A stretch of DNA of 64,000 nucleotides from a phage, in NCBI GenBank assembly GCA_033286805.1, contig GCA_033286805.1_4727.1; one strand, written 5' to 3'. Below are positions 9,024 through 59,786 of the stretch, in pieces; within the stretch, counting starts at the first letter, position 1; each line of letters begins with the position of its first letter. Below the pieces are notes generated by a model. That model worked only from the letters and a program-made list of their open reading frames with translations, ran no database searches and was not told the origin of the DNA. A program made the translations under genes and the position numbers.

Positions 9024-9057
9024 CCTTCTCCCCAACCCGTAAGGGAAGGGGAGAAGG
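9024..9057. terminator. bidirectional GC-rich hairpin between convergent genes (CCTTCTCCCC / AACCCGTAAGGGAA / GGGGAGAAGG)
   Basis: perfect 10-bp stem; A8 run upstream on plus strand, so a T-run follows the hairpin on the minus strand; flanked by CATAG and CTATG. Confidence 0.6.
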
Positions 9058-9074
9058 GCTATGCGCTATTTAAC

Positions 9075-9350
9075 TTATCTCGAGGTTAACCACGATTCAA
9101 TTGTGGTGAGGTTGCTTCGCAATACGCGCCAACTAGGGTGTGGTGGGATCACAGCACCTTGGTCGATTACGGTTAGCTGAGCCTGGTACTTCTGTTGCAT
9201 ACGGGCTACCGTAGCGTTTACCGAAAGGAAAAGCTGGTAACGTTCGTACGCCGTCAGTACAGCATCCATTTGGATTGCTTCGGTTGCTAAAACGATTTCG
9301 CGTAAGTCCTTTGCGTCCATCGGGACAGTAATGAGTTTATAATGACTCAT
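9075..9350 (-). CDS. small hypothetical protein (91 aa)
   Basis: ATG at 9350 with AGGAAA RBS; ends just before the convergent hairpin. Confidence 0.5.
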   Translation of the reverse strand: MSHYKLITVPMDAKDLREIVLATEAIQMDAVLTAYERYQLFLSVNATVARMQQKYQAQLTVIDQGAVIPPHPSWRVLRSNLTTIESWLTSR

Positions 9351-9399
9351 AGGGTTTCCTTATCAACCAGGGTATCGCGTTAACAATACCCATCGTCAA

Positions 9400-11958
9400 T
9401 TACTGTTCGTCGCGTTCCAACAGATACTCGGAAGCGGTAATACCGTTTACCGTACGTACTGCTTTCAGACGAGTATCATCACTCAGAATCACGGTAACAG
9501 ATTGCAGACCTTTTACTTTGGTTTCGAAGGTCTTGAACACCTGATCCAGCATACGAGCAATGCTTGGGTTGGTTGCAGCCGATGCGTGGGTGTAACCGCT
9601 TTGGTTCAGCTTCAGAATCTTGGCGTTGGTCGGTACGCGAACAACAACATGCGGACGCATCGCGAACACGCTATGATTAAACCAGTAAGCATCGTTGCTA
9701 TCTTCGTCGGTAACGATGTCTGGATTAACACGCATATCCTCGACAGCCGCATCCGCCAAACGCCGTTCGATTTCGTCAGCATCCAGAGAGCCATCTTTCT
9801 CCAGTTCTGCACGATACTCACTCATGGCAACCAGATGACGTTCACGATTCGCAGCGGATTTTTCGTGAGCTGCTTTCAGGTAGTCATGCATGTTGTACAG
9901 TTCAGCCATGGAAAGACGAATGTTCCACTGACCTTCGCCATCACGATTGCAGTAGAGGCACTTCAGCATGTTGACCCAGGTATAGTAGCAATTGGAGAAT
10001 TCATCTTCAATGAACTTCTGGTCCATTTTAAGATCGTGAATCAGCCAACCGGACAGTTCTCCGATATCATCAACGAAGCTAGAGATGGTGGTTTCAGAGA
10101 AGTTCTTCGGTACGATACGTTTGATCAGCTTGTTAACGTCTTTGGTCATGCTATCGTTCAGGAAATGCCAGATACGCAGAGGAATGACATCTCGATACTG
10201 TTGCATGATCTGACGATAAGCTTTGATATCGTCGCTACGACCTTTATCAATAGACAACGCATCCAGGAATTCATGGATTGCATCCAGCTCTTTGTCGGTA
10301 TAGGTTCCCAGATAGGAATTGACGGTGGCCAGGAATGCTAATGCGTCGTTTTGGTTGACGTCGGTGTTGGTCTGCTGAATGATCGCTACTGAAGCTTTGG
10401 TTTCAGCATCCTCAACGCTTGACGCTGCGATCGCATCGGTGACGGTAAACAGTTTCATTTCGCGCTGCTCACCGACAACGATTGGCTCACGCTGAACCGG
10501 CTTGTTAAGGCTAACACGAACAACTTCTGCTTGCGCGATACGATCCAGTTTTGCCATTTCCTGCTCTGCCATACGACGAGCGGTTGGATCTGATTCAAGT
10601 TCGATGTATTCCACTTCTTCCTCCGTGAGGGATGTAATGTCAACAATGGTTTCATGAAGAATTCCGTTTTCGTCGATACGTGCTCGACGAGCGAAGTGCC
10701 TGAAGTCATACAACGTCGGCCAACGACTATTAGGTGCAAAGTCTTTGGCTTTCAGACGCATCTGCATAAATTCTTCATGTTGAACAACACGACCGTAACG
10801 CTTAGCATCTTCGGTCGCATCAATTGGATTAACGGTCTTTGTTGCCGTAGCGGAACGAGCCGTACGAACCGGTTCCGGTTTCACCTGCGCAGGTTCAGGT
10901 TGAACGGGTTTCTGCTGCCCAGCCTTAACATGCCATTCTGGCTCTTCGTACTGTTCAGCAAATTGCTCGGCCGCTGCAAAGATATCGTTGATACCACCAA
11001 TATCTCCTTCAGGATTTGTCGAATATACTCGTGGTTGCGGTGCCTCGTAACGCGGCGCTGCGGTAGCAGGCGCGGCATCAACGATAGGATCATCATCACC
11101 AACATCATACAAACGGTTGAACGCACAATCCTTCGAATCAATGTACGATGGTGTTTGTGGTTGGACAACCGTAGGTCGAGGTTGTGTGCCGTATCCTGGT
11201 GTTGTTGGAGCCATACCACGCATAACTGCAGGACTAGGTTGGTATTGCGGTTGTGGGTAGGTTCCACCATACATGGCGTACGCAGGCTGTTGTGGTTGAC
11301 CATACCCGTTGCTAACCATCGCACTTGCTTGCGGCCCACGATAAGTCATCCCCATCTGCATCACCTGCTGCTTCAAACCACGTGACTTCTGAGCGATTTG
11401 CGCTAGGCTTCCGCTTTTATTCAGCTGCGTGTACTTGTTCGCGGCTTCCGGGTTAATGCGTGATAATTCAATCGCGCGATAATATTCCGGGTACTGATTA
11501 GGTTCAAAGAGCCACGTTACAAGATGATACAGCGCAACTGTGCTCACAGCAGCAGAGACGATCTGGTCGTCGGACGCGTTCTGTGGCATCGGGTTGATGT
11601 AAGAGAACACGTTCCAACAACAGTCTTCAACAAGCGATTCCATCATCATATCGTTATTGGTATAACGTGCGACGAACTCGGTTTGTATTTTGTCTTGCTG
11701 AGCGAAGTCTTTCAGGACATTAAAGATGGCTTGACGGATTTTGACGATCGTCGCTTCTTGGGTGATGAAGTTATAGTTCTGCTGATATGAGGGTTGTTGG
11801 TATTGTGGTGGTTGATAGGCGTTATTCGGATATGCACCGTACGGCGATTGCTGATACTGCTGCTGACGAACCTGTTCAGCCGCATAATTAATCGTGCTCG
11901 CATAAGGGTTTTCGCTATAGCCCATTTGCTGATACATGTTGTTACTGCCATTATACAT
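9400..11958 (-). CDS. hypothetical protein (852 aa) with Q/Y/P-rich low-complexity N-terminus and a second Q/P/Y-rich region
   Basis: ORF track; AAGGA RBS; N-terminal about 65 aa and aa 200 to 272 are Q/Y/P/N-rich. Confidence 0.7.
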   Translation of the reverse strand: MYNGSNNMYQQMGYSENPYASTINYAAEQVRQQQYQQSPYGAYPNNAYQPPQYQQPSYQQNYNFITQEATIVKIRQAIFNVLKDFAQQDKIQTEFVARYTNNDMMMESLVEDCCWNVFSYINPMPQNASDDQIVSAAVSTVALYHLVTWLFEPNQYPEYYRAIELSRINPEAANKYTQLNKSGSLAQIAQKSRGLKQQVMQMGMTYRGPQASAMVSNGYGQPQQPAYAMYGGTYPQPQYQPSPAVMRGMAPTTPGYGTQPRPTVVQPQTPSYIDSKDCAFNRLYDVGDDDPIVDAAPATAAPRYEAPQPRVYSTNPEGDIGGINDIFAAAEQFAEQYEEPEWHVKAGQQKPVQPEPAQVKPEPVRTARSATATKTVNPIDATEDAKRYGRVVQHEEFMQMRLKAKDFAPNSRWPTLYDFRHFARRARIDENGILHETIVDITSLTEEEVEYIELESDPTARRMAEQEMAKLDRIAQAEVVRVSLNKPVQREPIVVGEQREMKLFTVTDAIAASSVEDAETKASVAIIQQTNTDVNQNDALAFLATVNSYLGTYTDKELDAIHEFLDALSIDKGRSDDIKAYRQIMQQYRDVIPLRIWHFLNDSMTKDVNKLIKRIVPKNFSETTISSFVDDIGELSGWLIHDLKMDQKFIEDEFSNCYYTWVNMLKCLYCNRDGEGQWNIRLSMAELYNMHDYLKAAHEKSAANRERHLVAMSEYRAELEKDGSLDADEIERRLADAAVEDMRVNPDIVTDEDSNDAYWFNHSVFAMRPHVVVRVPTNAKILKLNQSGYTHASAATNPSIARMLDQVFKTFETKVKGLQSVTVILSDDTRLKAVRTVNGITASEYLLERDEQ

Positions 11959-11992
11959 TTCTTACGATCCTTTTTATTTATTCGGTTATGTG

Positions 11993-13789: not shown

Positions 13790-13828
13790 CACACACTCCT
13801 TTCAGAAAGTTGCTTAAGCAGATTAAAG

Positions 13829-15265: not shown

Positions 15266-15415
15266 CGTCAACCTCCATCTGATTGAAAACTATCACGCAT
15301 AATACATTTCCCTTTTCTTGTTCTTATCAAGCCGACAGCCGACGGTTTCAGCATCGTTCCTAGCGCGAGAACGACCTTACGTGTTGTCTATGCCTTATTC
15401 ATCGAAGGCGTCTGT

Positions 15416-15473
15416 CACCTAGGTAATGTAAGCGTCAAATTTTTTCTATTCGCAACGATAAACGGCATAGAAA
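15416..15473 (-). promoter_or_regulatory. conserved roughly 60-nt intergenic element, copy 1 (CACCTAGGTAATGTA ... GCATAGAAACC), upstream of gene 13829..15265
   Basis: shares the CACCTAGGTAATGTA box and the CATAGAA box with copies at 21897 and 59195; sits immediately 3' (on the minus strand) of a GC-rich hairpin. Confidence 0.45.
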
Positions 15474-15502
15474 CCTCCCCCAACCCTTACGGGCTGAGGG
15501 AG
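15474..15502 (-). terminator. GC-rich hairpin downstream of the candidate capsid gene (CCTCCC...GGGAGG)
   Basis: inverted repeat with inner CCC-TTAC-GGG; lies between the capsid stop (15603) and the next promoter-like element. Confidence 0.5.
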
Positions 15503-15602
15503 GCTGACTTATGTATCACGGTGCCGGATGAATGTCCGGTGCAATGAAACCATCCGCAACGTTGTCGTCAAGAATATCATCCAACGAAGCAGCTACGGTA
15601 GT

Positions 15603-17825: not shown

Positions 17826-17974
17826 TGAAAGTATCCTTTACAGAATTAACTTATATAAGTCGGTCGATAGACCATAGCGTACACGCGTGCATGCGCCACT
17901 ATAGTATCAGTAAACACTTACCGTTGTTTAGGCTGTGATACAACACTAAAAATGCCGCATAACTTTTCCCTACG

Positions 17975-20245: not shown

Positions 20246-20270
20246 ACGCAAAAAAAAAGATTGTGCGGTT

Positions 20271-20302
20271 CCCTCCTCCAACCCGTAAGGGAAGGAGGAG
20301 GG
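20271..20302. terminator. bidirectional GC-rich hairpin between convergent genes (CCCTCCTCC / AACCCGTAAGGGAA / GGAGGAGGG)
   Basis: perfect 9-bp stem; A9 run upstream on plus strand (T-run after the hairpin for the minus-strand transcript); GTTATGACC follows on plus strand. Confidence 0.6.
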
Positions 20303-20318
20303 GTTATGACCGCTTTGA

Positions 20319-20645: not shown

Positions 20646-20651
20646 GATAAT

Positions 20652-21693: not shown

Positions 21694-21875
21694 CGTATTT
21701 TACCTTTCTATGTTAGGTGGATTGCGGATAGAAGAATCAATGCATAGATTGATCGTTCTATGTTAGAAATTATTGCCGAACTGGTTATGGTTATAACGCG
21801 TGTTTTCGTATGCTGACGGGTCGCGTATTAATAAGGTCATGACTGTATCCTCGATTATTAAGAGAAATTTACAAC

Positions 21876-21955
21876 GATAACAGTAACCGCTGTTATCACC
21901 TAGGTAATGTAGTCGCGAAATAAACTGGAGTAATGCGAAATAAGACAGCATAGAA
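21876..21955 (-). promoter_or_regulatory. conserved roughly 60-nt intergenic element, copy 2, with abutting 8-bp palindrome GATAACAG-N6-CTGTTATC
   Basis: near-identical to the copy at 59174..59253 (CACCTAGGTAATGTAGTCGCGAAATAAACTG...CGAAATAAGACAGCATAGAACC). Confidence 0.5.
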
Positions 21956-21987
21956 CCCTCTCCCAACCCAGCAGGGAAGGGAGAGGG
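21956..21987 (-). terminator. GC-rich hairpin (CCCTCTCCC / AACCCAGCAGGGAA / GGGAGAGGG)
   Basis: perfect 9-bp stem immediately after the stop of gene 21994..22626; followed on the minus strand by TTCTATGCTGTCTTATTTCG. Confidence 0.55.
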
Positions 21988-21993
21988 AATATA

Positions 21994-22626
21994 TCACCAA
22001 TGATCGAAGGAACCAGGAGTGTTACGAACGATCTCAACTTGGAAGGTTATTGGTACTGATGGCAATGAAACATATTCGCGTTGCGATAGCAGGACGTTGT
22101 CTTCTCGCTCATCGATGCGAGTAGAACCCGTCAGAAATTGGAACATAGCGACTTGAAGCTCATCGGTGAAACGGAGGTACTCACCGATGTGTGGTGTTGC
22201 ATCATATCGAATAAGTACGTTGCCAAACCGTCGTGCGATATTTGGAGTATCTGTGAACGAAACAGGGAAATCCAAAGTCATTCCCATCGTTTCACCTGGC
22301 TTCATTTTCCGAATCGACGCAATTGGCGCGTCGAAGATATTCCATTCTTCTTTCATCGTGTCTGGAAACACACCGCGATACAAGATGGTCTTTTGATGAC
22401 GATGAACGGGTTGTAAACGGTCAACCAATATTTTCAAAGGTTTAAGTTCTTCAGCCAATTCATAATCTGCTTGGATGTTCCACTTTGCCGCAAGTTCCAT
22501 TAGGTTGGGATACGCGCTATATTTATTGACGATAGCCCAGTTAACATTACGCAAATCGATAGGAAGGAATTTGATAATTTCCTTGTTGAATATCCATTGG
22601 TTTAATTTCTTAATCTTCGAAAGCAT
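21994..22626 (-). CDS. hypothetical protein (about 210 aa)
   Basis: ORF track 21994..22815 would overlap the upstream gene by 170 nt; internal ATG at 22626 lies 16 nt after the upstream stop; start uncertain. Confidence 0.5.
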   Translation of the reverse strand: MLSKIKKLNQWIFNKEIIKFLPIDLRNVNWAIVNKYSAYPNLMELAAKWNIQADYELAEELKPLKILVDRLQPVHRHQKTILYRGVFPDTMKEEWNIFDAPIASIRKMKPGETMGMTLDFPVSFTDTPNIARRFGNVLIRYDATPHIGEYLRFTDELQVAMFQFLTGSTRIDEREDNVLLSQREYVSLPSVPITFQVEIVRNTPGSFDHW

Positions 22627-22642
22627 GATGTACTCACTACAG

Positions 22643-24010
22643 CTAAACGGTTGGACGAACGGTGTTGTCTTTTTCTGGTGCAAGCCATAACGTGACCGTA
22701 CCATGACATGTCCACTGTGGCTCACGTACAGAAGAACCTGCCATCGTAACAGCACAATCGGTACGCATGATAACCCCGTATGCTTCGCAGAGATTGTTAT
22801 CCTGCATCCACACAACTTTAGCAGGCATGCCGGGATACAACAAATCCATGTTTGCGTATTCCCACACCAACTGCATTGTTCTACCGCGTAATCCAGCAGT
22901 ATTGCTTAATTCACGCCATCGGTTATCGGTTACGCGTCCCATCCCTTTCGCCACCTTCACGTTATCGCTACGTTCTTCAGTTACGTACTCGCTAACGTTT
23001 ACGGTACGACTGATTATCGTATCACCCCCTTTTGATAATGTCATTCCCTGACTCATCTGACTTGCCGAAACAAAACGCCCGCCCGCATTACCTAACAACG
23101 AAGCCGCGTTATTGATGTCGCTTACCGACGCCCCTCTCGTACAGGCAATTTCCACGTATTTGTCACGATTGATCCAGGTCTTGTCCATGCCCGGAAACAT
23201 ATCGGCAGGATAGTTGTAAAAGATAGCCGTGCGCCGACCGTCAGAGAAACGGGTTTCGTCATAGAGAGGATAAATATACAGATACGGAGATTGGTAATAA
23301 CAACCGACATCCGCTGAATAAATACCGACCTGGTTCTGGATTTTGTCTACGAGATCCATTGCGTTGGTACCGTGCGGAAGAATAAGCAACTTGAACAGGT
23401 TGTCGTTATTCGGTGCAACAATATCCACACCCTGCATTTTGAATCCGGTGTCGGCTTCAACCGCAGAAAGTATTTTGCTGAATTCGAGCCGTAACACATC
23501 CAGAACTTTCGACCCGGTATAGTTTTCACCGGTTTCTGATTGCATGAAGCTTTCAAGAACAGGATCGAACAGTTGAAATTGAAGATCGACCATTTGCTCG
23601 TAGTCTTTCTTCGAAGAATCGGTTGCGGTACGTTCGTCGGTAGCAGACATACGACTGTCTACGGTTGTTAAACAAACCGCTCGGTAGACGTAAGCTTGTG
23701 CGGCATCGTCTACGGTTTGGCGTTGTCCGCGCATCAGGCTGTACGCCTGCACGATGATGCGCATTTTAAGTTGTTGTTGGTATGGTAGAATGTATTTTCC
23801 GTAACTGCCCGGTGGGAACTTTACAGAAATATAAAGTTCATCCCCTGCGTTACGTTCATAGTCTCGATACGTGTGGACTTGAGTCACTAAAGGAACAGAC
23901 ACCGTCATTGACGGCGTGATTAATTCCGCGGTGACTTTATACGCAACAGCAACTGCTTCCTGCGCAAATGTACCGATATACCGTCCTAACGGCGTCTGTT
24001 TGTAATCCAT
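22643..24010 (-). CDS. hypothetical virion-module protein (455 aa)
   Basis: ORF track; part of a tightly packed or overlapping minus-strand operon 21994..27859. Confidence 0.65.
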   Translation of the reverse strand: MDYKQTPLGRYIGTFAQEAVAVAYKVTAELITPSMTVSVPLVTQVHTYRDYERNAGDELYISVKFPPGSYGKYILPYQQQLKMRIIVQAYSLMRGQRQTVDDAAQAYVYRAVCLTTVDSRMSATDERTATDSSKKDYEQMVDLQFQLFDPVLESFMQSETGENYTGSKVLDVLRLEFSKILSAVEADTGFKMQGVDIVAPNNDNLFKLLILPHGTNAMDLVDKIQNQVGIYSADVGCYYQSPYLYIYPLYDETRFSDGRRTAIFYNYPADMFPGMDKTWINRDKYVEIACTRGASVSDINNAASLLGNAGGRFVSASQMSQGMTLSKGGDTIISRTVNVSEYVTEERSDNVKVAKGMGRVTDNRWRELSNTAGLRGRTMQLVWEYANMDLLYPGMPAKVVWMQDNNLCEAYGVIMRTDCAVTMAGSSVREPQWTCHGTVTLWLAPEKDNTVRPTV

Positions 24011-27859: not shown

Positions 27860-27910
27860 CGCAGATTCCTGTTTGAAAGATAAGATATCACATGATGGTC
27901 GACAGCATAA

Positions 27911-27932
27911 AGCCCACCCCGAAGGGCGGGCT
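27911..27932 (-). terminator. GC-rich hairpin (AGCCCACCC / CGAA / GGGCGGGCT) after the 1128-aa gene
   Basis: imperfect 9-bp stem with CGAA loop; followed on the minus strand by TTATGCTGTC. Confidence 0.5.
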
Positions 27933-33741: not shown

Positions 33742-33848
33742 TTGGGACTCCTACGTAGGAAAATCTTGGCGGGTGATCATGTCCGCCATTTACCTTCTGA
33801 ACCGTTGATTCAGAAGTCAAAAGATAACCGGATACCAACGTCATAAAA

Positions 33849-33880
33849 CCTTCCTCCAACCCAACAGGGAAGGAGGAAGG
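33849..33880 (-). terminator. GC-rich hairpin (CCTTCCTCC / AACCCAACAGGGAA / GGAGGAAGG)
   Basis: perfect 9-bp stem after the stop of gene 33891..35180; followed on the minus strand by TTTTATGACG. Confidence 0.55.
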
Positions 33881-36506: not shown

Positions 36507-36554
36507 GTGTTGTCTCCAGTAATGATTCAAAAGATAAACCTGAGCGGCATAGAA

Positions 36555-36586
36555 CCCTCTCCCAACCCGTCAGGGAAGGGAGAGGG
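36555..36586 (-). terminator. GC-rich hairpin (CCCTCTCCC / AACCCGTCAGGGAA / GGGAGAGGG)
   Basis: perfect 9-bp stem immediately after the stop of the highly biased 440-aa gene; TATG on both flanks. Confidence 0.6.
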
Positions 36587-44808: not shown

Positions 44809-44830
44809 AACAAAAATAGCATGAGCATAA

Positions 44831-44862
44831 CCCTCCTCCAACCCGTCAGGGAAGGAGGAGGG
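44831..44862. terminator. bidirectional GC-rich hairpin between convergent genes (CCCTCCTCC / AACCCGTCAGGGAA / GGAGGAGGG)
   Basis: perfect 9-bp stem between the plus-strand stop (44808) and minus-strand stop (44872); TATG on both flanks. Confidence 0.6.
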
Positions 44863-44871
44863 AATATGTTG

Positions 44872-47800
44872 TTATCTTACGTTACTGCTATTCTGCTGTT
44901 CGCTGAACCAACCGTACACCTTGAGATCGGTACCATATCTCAGTGCGATATACGCATTCAGCGCAGCACAGAACAAAGACGCGAATGCCCATATCAGCGA
45001 AGGATCAACATCTTCCGTTACCACTGGGAGAGTATTATCCGGTTCCCATGATGGAGAACTGTCCATGAACGTCGTGTACCATTCCCGCCGTTGTTCTTCA
45101 GTGGTAAAGTCGCTATGGGGTTCCAATGCTTCTTTTGCCAGACGTCGATATTCGAACATATGCGTTGCTAAAGCCGATGAGTTACCAGATTCGCCTTCAT
45201 AGTTCGGATCCACCGCATAACAGAGTTCTGTGGAATCTAACAAAGCGACCGCCTGTGTGATGCTGTCGGCAGTGCCTGCACCATAGAGCTCGATAGACCG
45301 CGAGAGCTTCTCACAGAACGCATTTAACGCGGCAGGATTGGACACCTGAAGGTCAAGGCCTAATGTCCACGGATAGTTACTGAATACACCCGTAAACCGC
45401 GGCATAACACCCAACAGATGTTGTCCGATTACAGCACGGTTATAAACAGCCCGGTTATAGACTTGAAACGCAGCCTCCAGGGCTTGGTTATAATGACGAC
45501 GAAGTTCATCACGCGTGTTGCGGAACCTGTTTGCCGCGAGACTTGTGGCTGCAACGCTACAAACATCGTAATTGGTGGACGAGAGCACAACCTCGTTAAG
45601 ATCGAACGATTCCTGTTTCAATGTTCCGCTAACAGCTGCCGCTTCGCTGTTCGCTTTATCGACAACTGTACTCAAAGCGTTGATGTAACGTTTAGCTCGG
45701 ACCTCCAACCATTGTGCGATGCCGAGAATATCCACCGCAGCTTTAGCAAGATCGCGTGCATTCACGATTTCGTTCTTCAACGCCCCTAAACCTTTATTTT
45801 CAGGCGATGAGGCTTGTTGACGAATCATGCTGTTCAACATGGTAAGCAGATTATCCAACTCATGTCCGCTGACCTTGTTACGCGCATCGGTAATCGGCCC
45901 TTGCAGGAATTTACGGCAACCATCGTTGTATCGAATCAGTTTATCCACATCGATAGATTCGTTCGTAGATTCCTTGAACTGATCCTTCAATTCTTCACGG
46001 TAGTCGTGGATTTCACTTGCGAGATTATCGATAGTGATACCGTCATGTCCAAGAAGAACTTTATTGAAGTTACCTTTCTCGAATGCCAGAGCAAGACCTT
46101 CACGAATCTTAGCGAGTTTATCCTGATCGAGTTCACGACCGTTCGATAGCTCTTTCACTTCCGAGCTGATTAATGCCGAAACGTTACCCAGATTGTCGGT
46201 AACTCCTTTGAACGCTCCCGACCAAATCGTTCCTACTTCAGCATATTTCGCAATGGTCTGAATACCGACGGTGTGTAGCGACGCTAAACGTTTCTTCGTG
46301 CCTTCGGTAAGCAGAGCGTCTTTAGCTCGCGTAAGCTGACTGTTATTAGCTTCCGCCTGCTGAATCGCTGCTTTCGCACTTCCATTACGCCAGCTCTTAA
46401 CCAGCCAATCAACCAAACGTTTTAGGATATTGACGGTGTATTCCATTGTCCGCCGTAACGTTTCCCACGCGCTTTCTGCGGTATAGATGCCGTACCCTTC
46501 CATCTTCAACGCTTTCAAGCTTGTTTGACGTGCCAACCATTCTACCGTTGCAGAGCAAACGTTTACTAATGCTTCCAGGTAGTTGTAATAGACGTCTGTT
46601 GCAGTTGTTTCGTTGAACTTTGAATGCAGATAGAACTGATCGTAAAGTTCGTCGTCATCGCCGAAGGCATCATAGTTCCACAGTTCTGTATCACAACCTG
46701 TACCGCAGAAGACGTCAGCTGTCGTAAACTCTTTAAGCGCTTTAGCTGCGTCATTTGTCAGGAATTTACCTGTTTCAACTACATCGTCAACATTAAGCTT
46801 GGGGAGTTCGTCGGTGACTGGCTCTTCCAACATCAGCATATTGAAGAATGTGCTGTACTTGTATCCGAGCCATTTTGGATAACTGCTTTCAGGGATCGTA
46901 GACAGCGGCTTGATTTTCTTGGCTTCAGCCAATGTGTCTTTTGCGACCTGATATTGGTTTTCCCCAGCCTTGACGCGACGTAATGCTTTTTCTTCCAACT
47001 GCTTAAGCTTGGCATGGCGTGCTTGTGCTGGAGCTTCAACAAGTTTTTGTACCGACCGCATTGCAGAAATCGCTTCTTTTAATACGATCATCGGCATACG
47101 AACTTTACCGTCGTCGAAACTAAGAGCGCGAGCGACACGTTTACTTACGACCGGCTTATCATGGATATTTCGTTCCACCCACGATTTGTTTGCGTAAGTT
47201 TGAGCGATCTGCTGTTGGATATTTTCAAGGTATTTCCAGCTGCTGGATGCTTTATTATCCAAAAGCGGATTCGGTCCCTTCTTATCGAAAAGTTTCAGAA
47301 TCGGACCAAAGAAACCTTCCTGTACGAGTTCGATACGCGTGTATCCGTCAGCCGCTTCGATTTCTTCTTGGGTTTTGTCCCAGAGCTGTTCACTACGGAC
47401 AGCAGTAGCTGTTTCAGATACCGACATAACAAGCTCGGCAACAACTTCAGCGCAGGTCAGTACGGTACGCACGCATTGCAGTAGCATACGCTGGTAAACG
47501 ATACGGGCGTTTTGTAAACGTGCGATAACCGCTAAATAACCGATATTGTCAAGACGTTCGTCGGCTTGAGCAGAGTCAACACGTTCTATCAGTTGTTTAA
47601 CCAGCGCGGCTGTTTCCGGATAATCGTTCACGACGTCACGCATAATTCGTGATGCGAAAACCGCGGTACCTAAAACAGTGAGGAGTGTTTTACTATCCCA
47701 TTCTTTTGGTGTCGCTACCGATTCAGTAGGGATGAGATTTCCCGCCTGGTCGAAGTACGGCATAAGGACATTGATATCAGTAGACGGAACAGCAGTAATT

Positions 47801-48477
47801 GCGTTATACTCTTCATCCGCACCATCGTTGCCAGACGGCTGTAATGCAAGTGCTTGTTCAAGGATTTTGCGGTCAGCGGCATAAAGCGCCGACAGAGCTT
47901 GCGTTGCCGCAACCAAATCAACGATCGGCGACCAGAGCTGTGCGAGCTTACCTTCGTATTTCCGTACAGCGATAGCAAGGTCTTCTTTTACGTCTGGATG
48001 ATTGATTAAACCACCCAATGTTTCATGGATGGCAGAAAAACGTTCGGAATGTGCTTGTGTCAACGCGGTAAAATCGTCAACGTACGACGCATTTTCTTCA
48101 AGGCGTGTAAGTTCCTGCTCCAGGAGATCTTTTACTTGCGTAGCAGATGCGTTTCTCAACTGTTCACCGATAATCGCGATGGCTTTATCGACAACGCGAC
48201 AAGCTTCATTGAAGCCGGTTGTTGAAGGTAACTCGGTCCATAATGCCAGCGGCTTACCTTCCATTGCGTCAGGAAGGGAATATGACAACATTGCTAGTTG
48301 TTGACGTGATACCTGTTTGTCACGATGTAATGTTTCTTTCAACGCCAGAAGCTCATCAAGACCCACACTGCTAGGGATCGTGGGATGTGATACAGCGTTG
48401 ATGTTTTCTGCTAATGACTCAAGAACCAATAAACCATTTTCAGCGGAAGATAACCCTGCTTTAAGGTATTTGTTCAT
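44872..48477 (-). CDS. very large hypothetical protein (1201 aa), alanine/leucine-rich and helical; virion internal protein-like
   Basis: ORF track; GGAG RBS; composition similar to the 932-aa and 1128-aa proteins. Confidence 0.65.
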   Translation of the reverse strand: MNKYLKAGLSSAENGLLVLESLAENINAVSHPTIPSSVGLDELLALKETLHRDKQVSRQQLAMLSYSLPDAMEGKPLALWTELPSTTGFNEACRVVDKAIAIIGEQLRNASATQVKDLLEQELTRLEENASYVDDFTALTQAHSERFSAIHETLGGLINHPDVKEDLAIAVRKYEGKLAQLWSPIVDLVAATQALSALYAADRKILEQALALQPSGNDGADEEYNAITAVPSTDINVLMPYFDQAGNLIPTESVATPKEWDSKTLLTVLGTAVFASRIMRDVVNDYPETAALVKQLIERVDSAQADERLDNIGYLAVIARLQNARIVYQRMLLQCVRTVLTCAEVVAELVMSVSETATAVRSEQLWDKTQEEIEAADGYTRIELVQEGFFGPILKLFDKKGPNPLLDNKASSSWKYLENIQQQIAQTYANKSWVERNIHDKPVVSKRVARALSFDDGKVRMPMIVLKEAISAMRSVQKLVEAPAQARHAKLKQLEEKALRRVKAGENQYQVAKDTLAEAKKIKPLSTIPESSYPKWLGYKYSTFFNMLMLEEPVTDELPKLNVDDVVETGKFLTNDAAKALKEFTTADVFCGTGCDTELWNYDAFGDDDELYDQFYLHSKFNETTATDVYYNYLEALVNVCSATVEWLARQTSLKALKMEGYGIYTAESAWETLRRTMEYTVNILKRLVDWLVKSWRNGSAKAAIQQAEANNSQLTRAKDALLTEGTKKRLASLHTVGIQTIAKYAEVGTIWSGAFKGVTDNLGNVSALISSEVKELSNGRELDQDKLAKIREGLALAFEKGNFNKVLLGHDGITIDNLASEIHDYREELKDQFKESTNESIDVDKLIRYNDGCRKFLQGPITDARNKVSGHELDNLLTMLNSMIRQQASSPENKGLGALKNEIVNARDLAKAAVDILGIAQWLEVRAKRYINALSTVVDKANSEAAAVSGTLKQESFDLNEVVLSSTNYDVCSVAATSLAANRFRNTRDELRRHYNQALEAAFQVYNRAVYNRAVIGQHLLGVMPRFTGVFSNYPWTLGLDLQVSNPAALNAFCEKLSRSIELYGAGTADSITQAVALLDSTELCYAVDPNYEGESGNSSALATHMFEYRRLAKEALEPHSDFTTEEQRREWYTTFMDSSPSWEPDNTLPVVTEDVDPSLIWAFASLFCAALNAYIALRYGTDLKVYGWFSEQQNSSNVR

Positions 48478-48492: not shown

Positions 48493-48523
48493 CCTAGGTG
48501 GAGGCCAATAACCTCCACCTAGG
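48493..48523 (-). terminator. perfect 12-bp stem hairpin (CCTAGGTGGAGG / CCAATAA / CCTCCACCTAGG)
   Basis: between the stop of the 932-aa gene and the RBS of the 1201-aa gene; lacks the TATG box. Confidence 0.5.
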
Positions 48524-51794: not shown

Positions 51795-51826
51795 GTTAAA
51801 TTCCTTTATAGTAAAAATAGAAGAGA

Positions 51827-53137: not shown

Positions 53138-53358
53138 TGTACACTCTCTAAATTTACGTAAATTTAAGGGCTAATGGATCGGCTGGCCGCACCAATCACA
53201 ATGTGTCCGCTGCTATGCAACGGCATTCATAGAAATACCTTTTGACGGTAACATCACCGTTCATAGCCCAAGCAATAAGAGTGGTCGGTTAAAAACAACA
53301 GAACGTGGGGATGATATAGAAAATCACCTTTTAACACTTATTACGAGTTTATCAAGCC

Positions 53359-55110
53359 ATGAGCGAACAAGAACGAAAACCTAAGAAGAAACTGCTCGGT
53401 ATTCAATGTCGACACATCAGCTATAACGAAGCGAACGATGGCAGCAAGAACGACCTCATGATCGCAAAAGAGATCATGTTCTTCGATGATAATACGCAAG
53501 CGACGAATCTTCGCTTCTTCGAGAATTACAAACGTCCGTTTTGGGTGACGGTAGAGAGTAAACGTAAGAACAAATATAAAAAGGAAAGCGAGAAGCTCTC
53601 GCATGTGCGTCGCTATGATGTCCGCCAAAGTGAACTGGTTGAAAAGATCAGTTCGGTGCTTTATAAAAGACGTGCTGATGACAACACCCGTCTACAGCAG
53701 CTTGCACGGAGTCCATACCTCTATGGCACGGACGTTAGCGCCAGCTGTTATTTAAAAACCCAGTACAACACAAAATGGCCGGAATACGTCGATAAATTAC
53801 CCGCTTCCATTGCCTGTTTCGATATCGAAACCGACGTTGTCCACGGGCACGGTAAGATCGTCTGTATGTCTATTACAATGGGATACAATGCGATACTTTG
53901 CTATACCAAGGACTTCGTTGGTCATATTCCGAATGCGATTGAGAAAACCCATGAGAAGATTCGATATTACCTGGCCGAACGTCTGAATACCAAAGAAGAT
54001 CCTCATGCGTTCGAAAAATATCATTACGATGTGCGAATCGTAGAAAGTCCGGCGCAAGCAGTCATCCAGTGCATGCAGAAGGTTCACGAATGGCAGCCGG
54101 ATTATCTCCTTGGCTGGAATATCGCGTTCGATATTCCGCGCATGCTCCAGGCACTGAACGAGGAAGGGTATCGTCCCGAGGATGTTTTCTCCGATCCTCG
54201 TGTACCACCTAAATATCGTATTGCTCGCTGGGTACCACCGAAGACAGACAAGGTATCTGCTTCAGGTCGTAAAACCAACCTTACCCTTGAGCAGACCTGG
54301 CCGATGTTTTATACGATGGCCACATACCAGGTTATGGATGCGATGTGCGGTTATAAGTTCGTTCGTTTAGGAAGACCGGATGAAGGACGCTATTCACTCG
54401 ATGCGGTGTTAGAGCGAAATAAATGCCATACGAAATTAAAAGCGATTCCTGGTACAGAGGGGTTCACGGAGCTTGCGTGGCACGAAGAGATGCAAACGAA
54501 CCATCAAATCGACTACGGCGTATATAACCTTTGGGATAACCAGGGTATCGAGGCGTTGGACCAGAAAACAAAAGACTATTCGATGACCATCCCTATTCGT
54601 TTGGCGGCGTCGGATTTGAAAGATTTCAGTTCTAACCCTAAACGTATCTGTGACAAACTTTTCTTCGTTTATCTTAACCGTGGGGAAGTCATGGGATGCA
54701 CTGCCGACGACATGACCCAGGAAGAAGATAAGTGGGTTATCTCACGAACCGGACATATCGTCACATTACCGTGCGATCTCATGGCGGACAACGGCATTCA
54801 TCTCTTCTGGGATATGCCGAACCTGAGAAGTTATATCCGTCTATTCGTTGCAGACCTCGACATTAGCAGTTCATACCCAAACGGGCAGATCCTGTTGAAT
54901 TTATCCAGAGCATGTGTTTTTCGTGAGCTCTCGCGCATTGAAGGCGTCTCTGACTATCAATTCAGGAAGTTAGGTATCAACTTTATTACCGGAGGTAAAA
55001 CGAACGCTGTAGACTTCTGTAGAATCGTTTATAAAGCACCATCGATGTTCGAACTCTTAGAACATTTCGATGCAACGCGTCCAAAAGGGGAAGCGCGGAC
55101 CATCGAATGA
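53359..55110 (+). CDS. family-B DNA polymerase, N-terminal fragment (3'-5' exonuclease domain plus palm motif A) of a split polymerase
   Basis: Exo I FDIETD (aa 154-159), Exo II GWNIAFDIP (aa 252-260), Exo III YNLWD (aa 389-393), motif A DISSSYPNGQILLNLS (aa 501-516); gene ends about 80 aa after motif A with no motif B or C. Confidence 0.6.
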   Translation: MSEQERKPKKKLLGIQCRHISYNEANDGSKNDLMIAKEIMFFDDNTQATNLRFFENYKRPFWVTVESKRKNKYKKESEKLSHVRRYDVRQSELVEKISSVLYKRRADDNTRLQQLARSPYLYGTDVSASCYLKTQYNTKWPEYVDKLPASIACFDIETDVVHGHGKIVCMSITMGYNAILCYTKDFVGHIPNAIEKTHEKIRYYLAERLNTKEDPHAFEKYHYDVRIVESPAQAVIQCMQKVHEWQPDYLLGWNIAFDIPRMLQALNEEGYRPEDVFSDPRVPPKYRIARWVPPKTDKVSASGRKTNLTLEQTWPMFYTMATYQVMDAMCGYKFVRLGRPDEGRYSLDAVLERNKCHTKLKAIPGTEGFTELAWHEEMQTNHQIDYGVYNLWDNQGIEALDQKTKDYSMTIPIRLAASDLKDFSSNPKRICDKLFFVYLNRGEVMGCTADDMTQEEDKWVISRTGHIVTLPCDLMADNGIHLFWDMPNLRSYIRLFVADLDISSSYPNGQILLNLSRACVFRELSRIEGVSDYQFRKLGINFITGGKTNAVDFCRIVYKAPSMFELLEHFDATRPKGEARTIE

Positions 55111-55157
55111 ATCAAGTATGTTGATCCTCGTTTAACAAAAAAGAAAACGCATGCGAA

Positions 55158-55196
55158 GCCCCTCCCCCTGGCGGAAGCCGGAGGGAGGGGTGGAGG
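55158..55196. terminator. GC-rich imperfect hairpin with T-run, shared terminator for the polymerase fragment (plus) and gene 55209..55682 (minus)
   Basis: CCTCCC...GGGAGG arms followed by TTTTATGTGTTTTT on the plus strand. Confidence 0.5.
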
Positions 55197-55208
55197 TTTT
55201 ATGTGTTT

Positions 55209-55682
55209 TTAATTATTGTTGGTGGGGTTATCGTCCGGTTTATATTCAATGCCGTAGGCGACGTAACGGTCTGTTGTATGGACGACAAGCGAGATAGGGA
55301 AATCATAATGCATAGTTTTGTCTCGAACGAGCTGAGTAAAGAGATCCATATAACGTATTAAGTCTTCACTGGTGTAATCAGAAGGGAAGAAGACATCGAT
55401 GGTTATTGAATCTTCATAGAGGCGTATGACCAACTTATCCAGAAGGTCGGCATATTGGTTAGCCGGGGTGACGTCCAGCTGACAGATGTCACGATCTCCT
55501 TCGTCTCGCGATACCCACATCGTGGTATCCTGTAATGAGGTTTCAAGGATCTCGAAAACACATTTTGCTGTAAGTCTTAGTTTATTTGTTACGTCATGGT
55601 TAGGTGAATAATGGTCACGGATGTTTTTCACTGCGTCTTTGATAGAGAAAGTCATTGTTGCTGTTCCTGTTATAGTCAACAT
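55209..55682 (-). CDS. small hypothetical protein (157 aa), member of a small paralog family
   Basis: ORF track; C-terminal motif ...DFPISL...YGIEYKPDDN shared with the 152-aa and 164-aa genes. Confidence 0.55.
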   Translation of the reverse strand: MLTITGTATMTFSIKDAVKNIRDHYSPNHDVTNKLRLTAKCVFEILETSLQDTTMWVSRDEGDRDICQLDVTPANQYADLLDKLVIRLYEDSITIDVFFPSDYTSEDLIRYMDLFTQLVRDKTMHYDFPISLVVHTTDRYVAYGIEYKPDDNPTNNN

Positions 55683-55685
55683 ATA

Positions 55686-55716
55686 GCCCTTCCCTAGCCG
55701 TCAAGGCCGGGGAAGG
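55686..55716 (-). terminator. GC-rich hairpin (CCTTCCC...GGGAAGG)
   Basis: inverted repeat between the small genes; followed on the plus strand by GGTATGTTT. Confidence 0.45.
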
Positions 55717-55732
55717 GTATGTTTACGTGTAA

Positions 55733-56128
55733 TTACTTTTTGGCGTCCGTTGGTGATTCAGTATGTTTCTCGCTGCTGGTGTACCAGAGTAGGTATGTCG
55801 GGAAAAGATTAACCTCTAAGCTAAACGGGATATTATATTTTTCTTCCATTTTGCAGAGATGTTCTTTAAGTAAATCCCTTGCTTCTTTGTTACGGCGAGC
55901 GGAGTGCCAATGTAGTTCTTCGTTCTCCTTTACCAGTACTTCTACAATGATACGCTGCTCGTGAACCTCGGTTTTCACAATAGCAAGTAAATCGTTACTA
56001 TCGAAACGGGTAAAACGAATGTACGAACCAGGCGTTTTTTCTTGTTTAACGATATCGATCATAGTAGAAATGTGTGGGTGATCGATGTTGTCGTTAACTG
56101 CTTTAACGATGGAATCTACAACGCTCAT
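55733..56128 (-). CDS. small hypothetical protein (131 aa)
   Basis: ORF track; ATG start. Confidence 0.5.
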   Translation of the reverse strand: MSVVDSIVKAVNDNIDHPHISTMIDIVKQEKTPGSYIRFTRFDSNDLLAIVKTEVHEQRIIVEVLVKENEELHWHSARRNKEARDLLKEHLCKMEEKYNIPFSLEVNLFPTYLLWYTSSEKHTESPTDAKK

Positions 56129-56168
56129 TTTTTTTTATCCTTAATGTTATCGGTTTAGAAATAATATT

Positions 56169-56933
56169 TTATTTGCTGTTATCTTTATCGACAGTTGTTA
56201 CCCATGATGGGAAAGCCGGATGGAAACAGAGCGTGAACGTAACCTTCGTATCGTATTTAAACGCACGGTCCACTAGCCGAGTATCGAACGTTTCCCTTAG
56301 ACCGTCATCATCGTTATCGATGACAGCCATATCCCTTAATATCCCAAGCACGTTAACGCCATCTGGTGTCTGGGTTACAACAAGTCGTCGTAATGGTCCG
56401 CATGTATAATCACGTACGTATCCTTTCTTCGGGTCCGATACTCTATTTAACGCATCGTGATTTTCGATGAATTCATCGGCAATACGAGTGATGTGTTCCC
56501 TTGCTTTATCTGGATCGTATTCTGCTAATAGTTCCTTCGTGTCGAATGTTATCGCGTTATTAGCATTCGATTCAGAAGGGAAACATAAAACTAAACGAAC
56601 AGGGTATTCGTATTGATCTGTTCTTGTTTCGAAAGCATTAGCTAAACACGGCTTGTATGCCTTTGCGTCGACATTGTCCAAACACGGATGCAATAATGCA
56701 TGAATAACGGCACCATCATCAGTTAAACCGAATTCCATAAATTGTGTTTCATCGGTGTCTGTTACGGTTTTCTGAAGGTACGCTTTACCGTTAACAATAT
56801 CGGTATCCCACATATCGTCGTTTAACGATTCTTCAAACTTATCGAATATATGGTTTACGAGATTGACGAGTTCATCAATACGGCACTGTTGGTTGAATTC
56901 GATTAATCGTTGAACTTTATCTTTGATAGACAT
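56169..56933 (-). CDS. hypothetical protein (254 aa), possibly a duplicated form of the small paralog fold
   Basis: ORF track; contains ...YEYPVRLVLCFP... and ...VTFTLCFHP... resembling the DFPI(S/T)L motif twice. Confidence 0.5.
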   Translation of the reverse strand: MSIKDKVQRLIEFNQQCRIDELVNLVNHIFDKFEESLNDDMWDTDIVNGKAYLQKTVTDTDETQFMEFGLTDDGAVIHALLHPCLDNVDAKAYKPCLANAFETRTDQYEYPVRLVLCFPSESNANNAITFDTKELLAEYDPDKAREHITRIADEFIENHDALNRVSDPKKGYVRDYTCGPLRRLVVTQTPDGVNVLGILRDMAVIDNDDDGLRETFDTRLVDRAFKYDTKVTFTLCFHPAFPSWVTTVDKDNSK

Positions 56934-56935
56934 GA

Positions 56936-57394
56936 TTACCCATTAGCTCCTTCTTCGTCTGGAGAGTATTCCATCGTGTAGAATTCATAACCGTCGGAAA
57001 ACTTGAGTGTTAATGTAATAGGGAAATCGCACGGCATAGCTGATTTCGTAAATGCGTTATTAGCAACATCAGCCAACCGACGTATAGCATCAGTCCCGCT
57101 GACGCTGAATGGTAGTTGTATGTTGATAAGGATGCGGTGCTTGTAAACATAGAAAACAACGGTGCTGTCAAGATAAACGCTATGGAACGGTATTGTTGGG
57201 ATGCGTTCCACGATGGTAAAATACGTCCCGTCATTATCGCTATGTCCCACCGACCAAATATCGGATTTGCGTAGATTTTGTTTGAGAGATTCGATACTTC
57301 GAGTGACGGTATCAGCAACAGGTGCGACGTAAGCGTCTTTATGCGAGTCGAAAAGTTCGTTGACGTTAGATTCGAATGAATACATTGTTGCCAT
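56936..57394 (-). CDS. small hypothetical protein (152 aa), small paralog family
   Basis: ORF track; C-terminal ...CDFPITLTLKFSDGYEFYTMEYSPDEE. Confidence 0.55.
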   Translation of the reverse strand: MATMYSFESNVNELFDSHKDAYVAPVADTVTRSIESLKQNLRKSDIWSVGHSDNDGTYFTIVERIPTIPFHSVYLDSTVVFYVYKHRILINIQLPFSVSGTDAIRRLADVANNAFTKSAMPCDFPITLTLKFSDGYEFYTMEYSPDEEGANG

Positions 57395-57460
57395 TATTCT
57401 ACCTCAATGGTTTAACCGATACGTGCCCCACCTAACAAGGGACACGTTATCGTTGATTAA

Positions 57461-57955: not shown

Positions 57956-57998
57956 ATTCACTTCTTTCTTAATCTAAATGTTAGTTGGGGTGGGATGC

Positions 57999-58601: not shown

Positions 58602-58657
58602 ATCGAATTCCTTAAATTATCTTGAGTTCAATTAATGATGAAAAGCTGTAAAAAAAA

Positions 58658-58675
58658 GGTGGGGCGAACCCCACC
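58658..58675. terminator. rho-independent-type terminator (GGTGGGG / CGAA / CCCCACC) flanked by A/T runs on both sides
   Basis: 7-bp GC stem with tetraloop; A8 upstream and A4 downstream on plus strand, giving a T8 run after the hairpin on the minus strand. Confidence 0.65.
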
Positions 58676-58700
58676 AAAACGTCAGACACACGCAGGAAAA

Positions 58701-59126
58701 TTAATTCAGTGATGCATATAACGCGTAACGACTGTAGATCTCAACCGCCGGTCCGTTATGCGTTAACAGACCATCCTGGTTGTAATATTGGAAAAATGAA
58801 TAACGTTTGTCGAAGTGATAAACAAAAGCAATGTCTTTGCTGCCAAGACCTGTGATGCGTGGTCTGTTTTTATCTAGCAGAGCTTTGACTTTTAACAGTG
58901 TTGCCGCACGTGCTTTAACGTTAGGGATCAAGCCATCACAATCGATATAAACTGTGTAACCTGTTTCAGATGTTGCGACGGTTGTATTACGATTGACGCG
59001 GAAGATTTTTGTTTCGTATGTACTATCTTCAAGAATTGGGTTTTGTTTTTCGTATTTTCGTTTACGTAGAAATTCTACAACGGTGATATAGTTAGCGGTG
59101 ATATGTCCGGTTATAGCTTGTAACAT
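58701..59126 (-). CDS. hypothetical protein (141 aa)
   Basis: ORF track; first gene downstream of the conserved element copy 3. Confidence 0.55.
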   Translation of the reverse strand: MLQAITGHITANYITVVEFLRKRKYEKQNPILEDSTYETKIFRVNRNTTVATSETGYTVYIDCDGLIPNVKARAATLLKVKALLDKNRPRITGLGSKDIAFVYHFDKRYSFFQYYNQDGLLTHNGPAVEIYSRYALYASLN

Positions 59127-59173
59127 CTTGACATCCTCTTATATCGGATTGATTACAGTTATCTTAAATAGGC

Positions 59174-59253
59174 GATAAGATATTTTGCTCTTATCACTAA
59201 GGTAATGTAGTCGCGAAATAAACTGCGTTAAAACGAAATAAAACAGCATAGAA
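59174..59253 (-). promoter_or_regulatory. conserved roughly 60-nt intergenic element, copy 3, with abutting 7-bp palindrome GATAAGA-N8-TCTTATC
   Basis: near-identical to copy 2 (CACTAAGGTAATGTAGTCGCGAAATAAACTG...CGAAATAAAACAGCATAGAAACC); 68 nt upstream of the ATG at 59126. Confidence 0.5.
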
Positions 59254-59296
59254 ACCTCCTCCCCCATCCTTCAAGAGGACGGTGGGAAGAGGGAGA
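59254..59296 (-). terminator. GC-rich variant hairpin after gene 59299..59700
   Basis: CCTCCTCCCCC...GGGAAGAGGGAGAG imperfect inverted repeat with inner TCCT-TCAA-GAGGA. Confidence 0.4.
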
Positions 59297-59298
59297 GA

Positions 59299-59700
59299 TT
59301 AAATGTCGTGGACGGCAATGCCGTTTAACCAGCAATACAGCTTAACGCGACAGGAATACCGCTTCGTTGCGGCAACCATTTCATCGCGTAAACGCTGGTA
59401 GATTTCATCCTGGTGTTCACGATCAATGGGGTAATCAGCCCAACATTCGATCATGACGTCACCATTCGTCAGAATCGTCGTACGCATCCTGTCCTGGATA
59501 CGGCGGTCTTTCCCGGCATTAGGGAAATACATTCCTTCAGTACGAATAAGGTCGCCGCAGGGCATGACTAACCATTCGTTCGTTTTGCCGGTATTCTTAT
59601 AATCCATTACAGCTTGCATTGCGGTGTCAACGCTAAAAGAAACATAATTCCAAACGGATGTCCAACGATAGATTGCGGGTTGTTCGAGTGTTTCGTTCAT
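59299..59700 (-). CDS. hypothetical protein (133 aa)
   Basis: ORF track; ATG start. Confidence 0.55.
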   Translation of the reverse strand: MNETLEQPAIYRWTSVWNYVSFSVDTAMQAVMDYKNTGKTNEWLVMPCGDLIRTEGMYFPNAGKDRRIQDRMRTTILTNGDVMIECWADYPIDREHQDEIYQRLRDEMVAATKRYSCRVKLYCWLNGIAVHDI

Positions 59701-59754
59701 GGAGTGCTTGTCCTATTTTTATTTTCTGCACAGGATAAATTCAACGGCATAAAG

Positions 59755-59786
59755 CCCTTCCCTGCCCTTATATGGGGCGGGAAGAG
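59755..59786 (-). terminator. GC-rich hairpin (CCCTTCCCTGCCC / TTATAT / GGGGCGGGAAG)
   Basis: imperfect inverted repeat in a 214-bp non-coding gap; GTTTATGACC follows on the plus strand. Confidence 0.4.

Follow-up and report, generated by a model that had tools for sequence, protein, structure and literature searches.

Transcripts of the Pseudomonas phages phiKZ and 201phi2-1 end at a well-described kind of terminator. In phiKZ, 61 terminators mapped by Oxford Nanopore Technologies (ONT)-cappable-seq share the motif BCCYCCCC-HWWD-GGGRRGG-BY-TTATKYYGT, in which the position of the G of the terminal TTATG-type box corresponds to K (G or T) (Putzeys et al., 2024, Microlife; PMC10914365). A similar motif is found at 59 sites in 201phi2-1, together with a second motif that lengthens the stem, and selected 201phi2-1 terminators were active in a reporter terminator trap (Microb Biotechnol 2024; PMC11512511). 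TATG is also the published core of phiKZ late promoters, for which TATG with G at +1 is necessary (PMC4666361), with the non-template TATG being bound by GP123, an integral beta-like subunit of the non-virion polymerase, again with G at +1 (PMC12809450). No publication was found that connects the tract at terminators with this promoter core, and the string TATG is absent from both transcriptome papers (PMC10914365; PMC11512511). A paper describing enhanced crosslinking and immunoprecipitation (eCLIP) of ChmC reported no motif and no hairpin binding. Here, a family of GC-rich hairpins, most of which are followed by a TATG-containing box, is described in a 64,000-nt stretch of phage DNA (contig GCA_033286805.1_4727.1 of GenBank assembly GCA_033286805.1; hereafter, the window). 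These hairpins are probably factor-independent terminators for the phage's own multisubunit RNA polymerases, representing the form of the phiKZ/201phi2-1 motif found in the lineage of Escherichia phage vB_EcoM_Goslar (MK327938; hereafter, Goslar). Terminators of this kind are already known from phiKZ and 201phi2-1; most Goslar copies lack public annotation.

Goslar is a nucleus-forming jumbo phage of the Chimalliviridae that infects E. coli. Over 12 kb of the window, identity to Goslar is 97%, and the full comparison revealed five homology blocks of 91-98% identity. Most window genes lie on the minus strand, and the region encodes the major head protein and many virion proteins. As a phiKZ-type terminator presupposes a multisubunit polymerase encoded by the phage itself, it is relevant that the annotation of the orthologous Goslar region includes RNA polymerase beta-like genes. 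According to a curated gene map based on open reading frames (ORFs) and the Goslar annotation, 2931 of the 64000 nt (4.6%) are intergenic. Searches of the window against Rfam 15 yielded no match at gathering score, and tRNA and tmRNA scans likewise gave no match. Sigma-70-like promoter matches across positions 1-60000 fell below shuffled levels (13 vs 27.1, 13 vs 25.6, and 25 vs 31.6), in line with a phage that does not use the host polymerase; these scans did not pick up the hairpin family.

An initial annotation of the window, made from the sequence alone, had listed hairpins at 15 sites, all of which were confirmed to be present. When every 46-nt window was folded on both strands in an unbiased scan, 13 of the 14 hairpins with a free energy of -24 kcal/mol or lower were intergenic (binomial p = 5e-17), as were all nine at -26 kcal/mol or lower. 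Folding energies of representative copies range from -25 to -31 kcal/mol (z = -4.7 to -6.4 relative to dinucleotide shuffles). The literal stem sequence CCCTCYCCC occurs five times in the window, at three sites (0.24 occurrences expected), and a wider family that pairs a pyrimidine 5' arm with a purine 3' arm (CCYCCCC...GGGRRGG) takes in 12 of the 15 sites. The shared-stem family originally proposed is retained for these 12; the hairpins at 48493, 57422 and 58658, the first and last of which had already been set apart as simpler, are of unrelated sequence. The near-identical loop attributed to the best copies, AACCCGTMAGGGAA, is exact at 9024, 20271, 36555 and 44831 but nowhere else among the sites. 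The best copies adopt a two-tier architecture, Y9-AA-CCC-NNNN-GGG-AA-R9, comprising a 9-bp stem, an internal loop that reads AA/AA in DNA and UU/UU in the sense RNA, a CCC/GGG stem and a tetraloop.

When 15 non-orthologous copies, drawn from both the window and Goslar, were aligned, 98.9% of cells proved to be paired, with double changes between C-G and U-A at six of the 12 stem pairs and no one-sided changes. G-U pairs are absent from this alignment, such that both DNA strands would be able to fold. Between orthologous copies of the window and Goslar, loops vary (differing tetraloops include GTCA, GTGA, GTAA, AGCA and AACA) and stems are kept. A covariance model built from the 15 copies and run over the window with filters off returned matches at E < 0.05 at 11 sites (9024, 15474, 20271, 21956, 33849, 36555, 44831, 55158, 55686, 59254 and 59755), all intergenic; site 27911 scored E = 0.24 and the best coding-region match E = 0.12. 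The motif does not, therefore, occur at a comparable rate within genes, an outcome that the initial annotation had named as one that would count against the module.

This confinement to intergenic DNA bears out the terminator-like placement at gene and operon ends first noted in the initial annotation. The hairpins lie just past stop codons, two-sided copies occur where genes converge, and each of the four convergent junctions in the window carries one. A scan with the canonical terminator consensus flagged 58658 alone among the 15 sites, and most copies do not present a U-run of at least five U in eight positions. Goslar contains 56 intergenic GC-core hairpins, only a few of which are annotated in its record as "putative transcriptional terminator"; across the portion that corresponds to the window, these are the orthologues of 27911 and 58658 only.

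Ten of the 15 minus-strand sides have a TATG that starts no more than 8 nt past the stem, relative to a background of 0.023 (p = 1e-13). On the plus strand, TATG is found at eight of 15 sides within 8 nt and at nine of 15 within 9 nt, 55158 being the site at 9 nt (p = 9e-12 for the nine, computed against the 0-8 nt background of 0.023), and several sites are flanked on both sides. Of the four sites to which the fullest form of the box, TTCTATGCYGT, had been assigned (15474, 21956, 36555 and 59254), 36555 reads TTCTATGCCGC and so does not end in GT. The box-like string described upstream of the capsid gene, GTTATGCGGCATTTTTAG, exists but is not accompanied by a hairpin. Every intergenic TATGNYG on the minus (sense) strand of the window is hairpin-associated, no stand-alone, hairpin-free copy being found in the intergenic DNA of that strand. 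The sole other intergenic match is the plus-strand TATGTTG at 55117, some 40 nt upstream of hairpin 55158 and just past the stop codon of gene 53359-55110.

The same pattern was seen when the whole Goslar genome was assembled for survey. Alignment of 45 sense-side boxes on TATG gave TATG-Y(41/45)-Y(38/45)-G(27/45)-T(26/45), and of 47 cases, 40 have a TATG beginning 1-5 nt past the stem. A tract of the TTATKYYGT type, which characterizes the phiKZ terminator, follows the stem both in the window (10 of 15 sense sides with TATG within 8 nt) and in the Goslar consensus. When Goslar sides were classed according to our own ORF calls, a few of which are wrong, the box was found at 22 of 36 tandem sides, 23 of 36 gene ends without a following gene and nine of 38 antisense sides; sense and antisense sides differ (p = 1e-4), whereas tandem and convergent sides do not (p = 1). 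At 13 convergent Goslar junctions verified against the GenBank annotation, TATG lies within 8 nt on 21 of 26 sides, several of which present a full TATGCYGT immediately adjacent to the opposing gene's stop codon.

TATG itself is rare in these genomes. In both the window and Goslar, TATG and its complement CATA are tied as the most under-represented non-palindromic tetranucleotide, with an observed/expected ratio of 0.70. The ratio is 0.62 in SPN3US, where TATG and CATA are again the most under-represented, 0.76 in phiKZ, 0.89 in lambda and 0.88 in T4. Goslar genes contain 744 sense and 357 antisense copies, as compared to 1071 ± 19 and 480 ± 13.5, respectively, in synonymous-codon shuffles. 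TATG looks like a real signal in this lineage, posing the puzzle of a tetranucleotide that is avoided genome-wide yet placed precisely at transcript ends.

The experimentally mapped ends of phiKZ allow the box to be placed relative to transcription. From Tables S3 and S4 of the bioRxiv supplement of Putzeys et al., start sites P001-P126 (of 149) and terminators T034-T076 were considered. Placed on the sequence, phiKZ 3' ends are located within the box at 3-9 nt from the stem, as at T046 (TTTTATG[C]TGT, the end being bracketed), T051 (ATTATGT[C]GT), T057 (CTTTATGT[T]GT), T059 (ATTA[T]GTTGT), T060 (TTATGA[C]GT) and T065 (TTATG[T]TGT), and so cluster between the T preceding the box G and 2 nt past that G. 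About three quarters of these terminators carry TATG, yet none of P001-P126 starts on the TATG of a terminator box. Instead, phiKZ promoters that follow terminators sit about 10-40 nt further on: the early promoters P001, P017, P028 and P099 begin right past the box, the middle promoter P023 lies ~33 nt on, and the late starts P049, P054, P075 and P104 use a different TATG, 6-26 nt downstream. No start site is listed near T044, where the next gene is close by, which points to read-through.

The covariance model built from the E. coli phages also matches phiKZ gene ends at which termination has been mapped, T057, T060 and T052 among them, and the window and Goslar hairpin with its TTATGYYGT tract corresponds to the published phiKZ motif (PMC10914365). 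Following the major head gene, phiKZ reads CCCTCCC-TTCG-GGGAGGG-CTTTATGTTGT, while 201phi2-1 contains the same module as CATAAAGCCCCTCC-TCAC-GGAGGGGCTTTATGctgt. The phiKZ terminators, found in the same phage family, share with those described here the pyrimidine and purine arms, the GC-rich stem-loop located where genes end, an identically spaced TTATG-YYGT tract after it and a frequent palindromic CATAA upstream; they differ in having a 7-8 bp stem with a tetraloop rather than longer, usually two-tier stems, and in that their ends are transcript-mapped whereas those considered here are known from sequence. In 201phi2-1, motif A is similar to that of phiKZ, the addition of motif B extends the stem much as a CATA/TATG lower stem does here, and bidirectional terminators lie at convergent genes, although the stems are shorter and single-tier, the host genus is another and activity was tested there. 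In SPN3US (40-90 kb), the same stem design is followed by a TTATTTTTT-type tract (TTATTTTT) instead of TATGYYGT, which makes TTAT the most widely conserved part and the box G lineage-dependent. Bacterial intrinsic and bidirectional terminators likewise combine a GC-rich hairpin with release a few nt past the stem and a symmetric A-rich/U-rich two-way design, yet rely on a U-run rather than on a specific TTATGYYGT, and the enzyme presumed to act here is a phage multisubunit polymerase inside the phage nucleus. The position, structure and covariation of the hairpins, the strand logic of the box and the identity with the phiKZ motif are all direct observations.

By analogy with these systems, the nascent RNA would fold into a GC-rich stem, pyrimidine on its 5' side and purine on its 3' side, often in two tiers joined by the UU/UU internal loop, and the transcript would be released in the following tract, (T)TTATG-YYGT, with the G lying 5-9 nt past the stem. 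The TTATGYYGT tract would thereby stand in for the bacterial U-run, with the TATG box serving as the termination zone. Copies with a tract on both strands, chiefly those between convergent genes, would act as bidirectional terminators, while downstream genes would be expressed by read-through or from separate promoters further on, such as CTAYATTACYTNNGTGA at three sites. Two other explanations for the box were considered and set aside. As the CATA/TATG flanks can form a short lower stem, the box could merely extend the hairpin; this was rejected as the main reason, given that YYGT has no upstream complement at tandem sites, making the tract a sequence signal and not a stem alone, and given that the orientation of the box tracks that of the gene upstream. 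The GGAGG of the purine arm and an ATG 4-8 nt on look like a ribosome-binding site and start codon, a resemblance judged coincidental, the ORFs being short and non-conserved and the arm locked in the stem.

Several points weigh against factor-independent termination by the phage enzymes. The location of RNA 3' ends in the box and terminator activity in this phage are extrapolated from phiKZ and 201phi2-1, and 3' ends obtained by ONT sequencing do not tell termination apart from processing. Most copies have no U-run and escape the canonical terminator scan, rendering termination by the host polymerase doubtful, with termination by the phage enzymes being deduced from relatives. The strict box G and the YYGT beyond the mapped 3' ends are not explained by a simple substitute for a U-tract. 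The distance from the box to the next start codon is just 20-40 nt at several tandem junctions, too short to accommodate another promoter, such that those genes need read-through or a start at the box. Finally, the annotation check covered 13 convergent sites, the remaining Goslar orientations being ORF-based.

The initial annotation had viewed hairpin and box as a coupled terminator/late-promoter module, in which the non-virion polymerase would start at the G of the hairpin-adjacent TATG and transcribe the next gene. The terminator half of that proposal is upheld by position, structure and the phiKZ motif; that the box generally serves as promoter of the next gene is, however, unlikely, although it may be used as a start site at some tandem junctions. 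TATG is indeed the element with G at +1 that phiKZ late promoters require and that a beta-like subunit reads (PMC4666361; PMC12809450), and its avoidance elsewhere in the genome but presence after hairpins favors this proposal. At some junctions, the box is the only conserved element in the 20-40 nt before the next start codon, and phiKZ P049 and P075 start at a second TATG only 6-10 nt past the TTAT of a terminator. The looser form TATG-HYG is, moreover, commoner at tandem (17/36) than at convergent (7/36) Goslar sides (p = 0.02), although the strict TATGCYGT is not (9 vs 6). Still, a late promoter should lie upstream of and be co-oriented with a gene, whereas the box occurs just as often at positions with no following gene, as on 21 of the 26 verified convergent sides, where the full TATGCYGT also occurs (e.g., Goslar 27746, 71990 and 93445) and where a promoter would yield antisense RNA only. 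In the window, boxes without a following co-oriented gene are found at 9024, 20271 and 44831, as well as at 55158, where TATG lies 9 nt past the stem. In phiKZ, the box holds RNA ends and not starts, with none of P001-P126 falling on a box TATG, and the box G can be G or T; SPN3US has TTATTTTT. Lastly, while the phiKZ late promoter (Yakunina et al., 2015; de Martin Garrido et al., 2024, 2026) shares with the box a TATG that is avoided in genes, p119L presents AT-rich upstream DNA and no upstream hairpin, and three of the four boxes initially listed as fullest are followed by a separate cassette resembling early promoters.

That the hairpins instead are elements of 3'-end stability or processing, with polymerase reading through and the RNA then being cleaved in the AU-rich box or trimmed by exonuclease back to the stem, is decidedly improbable. 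The very stable stems (-25 to -31 kcal/mol), the missing U-run and the read-through needed by genes 20-40 nt downstream would suit such a role, and the phiKZ 3'-end maps do not discriminate between the two processes (PMC10914365). Nonetheless, 201phi2-1 terminators of the same type cut downstream reporter expression in an uninfected host (PMC11512511), phiKZ 3' ends lie 3-9 nt past the stem, as in intrinsic termination, rather than at the stem edge, and neither a TATGYYGT consensus nor a fixed distance from the stem is needed to block an exonuclease. Least probable of all, to the point of being hardly credible, is a dispersed palindromic repeat acting at the DNA level, whether of the repetitive extragenic palindromic (REP) or miniature inverted-repeat transposable element (MITE) type or a recombination or cruciform site, that would lie at gene ends incidentally. 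Many sites do share near-identical 32-nt cores, orthologous loops shift toward the commonest family variant, one copy has its orientation reversed in situ, the window starts to depart from Goslar at points 5 and 9 nt from hairpins, and the lack of G-U pairs would let both DNA strands fold. Yet, the strand logic of the box is tied to the direction of the upstream gene, the motif is kept from Pseudomonas to E. coli phages with a shared design and differing stem sequences, experimental 3' ends lie at the phiKZ counterparts, and neither a transposase nor target-site duplications were seen.

Within the preferred reading, namely, phage-specific termination, the TATG of the tract might reflect an elongating phage polymerase that reads TATG with the same beta-lobe pocket as used at late promoters, so as to pause in promoter register with its active site at or near the G, 5-9 nt past the stem; such a pause would allow time for the hairpin to release the RNA, the role that a U-run plays in bacteria. 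This idea, prompted by the clustering of phiKZ 3' ends around the box G and the reading of TATG by GP123, is offered tentatively and is more likely wrong than right. If true, one avoided four-base signal would mean start or stop depending on the preceding hairpin, and stop-and-restart would become possible at tandem junctions. More generally, the sites described provide a practical map of terminators in an E. coli jumbo phage of the Goslar type, with about 12 sites in the window and about 50 in Goslar, and extend conservation of the phiKZ terminator design, including the TTATGYYGT tract, from Pseudomonas to E. coli chimalliviruses. Such a map can serve in operon prediction, in the correction of gene starts (such as that of Goslar_00047) and as a source of parts for engineering, while termination by non-canonical phage polymerases can be directly addressed with enzymes that have already been purified.

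Promoter-like elements were found beyond some of the boxes. A shared cassette of ~65 nt ending in CTAYATTACYTNNGTGA, about 45 nt past the hairpin, follows three of the four boxes initially listed as fullest, those at 15474, 21956 and 59254. CTAYATTACYTNNGTGA has three matches in the window, all intergenic, as compared to 0.25 expected. These correspond to TTACATTACCTAGGTGA (15415-15431, minus strand, ~44 nt downstream of hairpin 15474), which matches phiKZ early promoters (Table S3), CTACATTACCTAGGTGA (21896-21912, minus strand), downstream of hairpin 21956, and CTACATTACCTTAGTGA (59194-59210, minus strand), downstream of hairpin 59254. Goslar contains nine intergenic copies of the cassette, with the longer consensus AAAAATTTCACGGCTATATTACTTAGGTGA, matching phiKZ early (virion-polymerase) promoters such as TTTAAACAGTATATTACAAAGGTGA. 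Copies of AAAAATTTCACGGCTATATTACYTANGTGA, probably the early-promoter consensus of the Goslar lineage as judged from sequence, lie at Goslar 2559, 15059, 43258, 113789, 142792, 166061, 172970, 187631 and 201936, with one being upstream of gene 171003-172898. The order of terminator followed by early-promoter-like cassette is the same as that in phiKZ. By contrast, TTATCTTTYRA (27873-27883, 33817-33827 and 36527-36537, minus strand), found 14-26 nt downstream of TATG at hairpins 27911, 33849 and 36555, was rejected as a general promoter, since it occurs nowhere else in Goslar beyond these three orthologous sites, which are neighbouring operon junctions, and is thus a local duplication of a leader or intergenic cassette.

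At the four convergent junctions, the hairpins differ in how the two flanks are built. The two-tier hairpin at 9024-9057 (55.4 bits in the covariance model search) has TATG on both strands (plus strand, 9060-9063; minus strand, 9018-9015) and a T8 on the minus strand. Hairpin 20271-20302 (element 20271-20308) is followed on the plus strand by GTTATG (TATG at 20305-20308) and on the minus strand by a T9 run without TATG. Hairpin 44831-44862 (44826-44871) is flanked by TTATGC on the minus strand and AATATGTTG on the plus strand, while hairpin 55158-55190 (55158-55203) has a plus-strand TATG at 55200-55203 and, on the minus strand, CATG and then a T-rich run. At all four junctions, the interval from the plus-strand stop codon to the hairpin (8994-9023, 20246-20270, 44809-44830 and 55111-55157) contains an A-run, read as a T-run on the minus strand; these may be an added U-run that reinforces minus-strand termination where read-through would be antisense.

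Minus-strand hairpins with a box comprise 15474-15503 with TTTCTATGCCGT (15473-15462; element 15462-15503), downstream of the capsid gene (-31.3 kcal/mol, z = -6.4), 21956-21987 with TTCTATGCTGT (21955-21945; element 21945-21987), the shorter hairpin 27911-27932 with TTATGCTGT (27902-27932), 33849-33880 with TTTTATGACG (33839-33880), 36555-36586 with TTCTATGCCG (36545-36586), which also presents AATATG on the plus strand, and the hairpin of site 59254, 59255-59292 with TTTCTATGCTG (59244-59292). The annotated start of Goslar_00047, the orthologue of which occupies 21764-21952 (minus strand) of the window, is the ATG of the terminator TATG box at 21956; a subsequent ATG with GAGGA ahead of it (..CGAGGATACAGTCATG) is the more plausible start codon, with the intervening sequence being the repeated promoter-like cassette. 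Hairpin 55686-55717 (55677-55721) has TATG on both strands, and translation of gene 55209-55682 starts at the minus-strand ATG; relative to Goslar 84365-84398, the asymmetric inner part of this hairpin is inverted in place. Hairpin 59755-59784 (59745-59792) has the box CTTTATGCCG on the minus strand and AGTTTATG on the plus strand.

The three hairpins of unrelated sequence all lie on the minus strand. That at 48493-48523 has no box and differs from its Goslar orthologue (74839-74869) by several compensatory arm changes, despite 91-97% genome identity. The weak hairpin at 57421-57448, also without a box and without a covariance model match, is a doubtful member, while site 58658 (58650-58675) is an ordinary intrinsic terminator, GGTGGGG-TTCG-CCCCACC followed by T8.

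Some of the differences between the window and Goslar begin close to hairpins. A 651-nt insertion in the window (21993-22643) starts 5 nt from hairpin 21956, and a block of homology stops 9 nt past hairpin 55158, with the next 1.75 kb (55200-56949) being non-homologous. The hairpin repeats may be points of module exchange. The Goslar HNH/NUMOD1 endonuclease segment that follows the DNA polymerase gene is absent from the window, and further regions of difference lie at 46508-48178 and 54855-54873.

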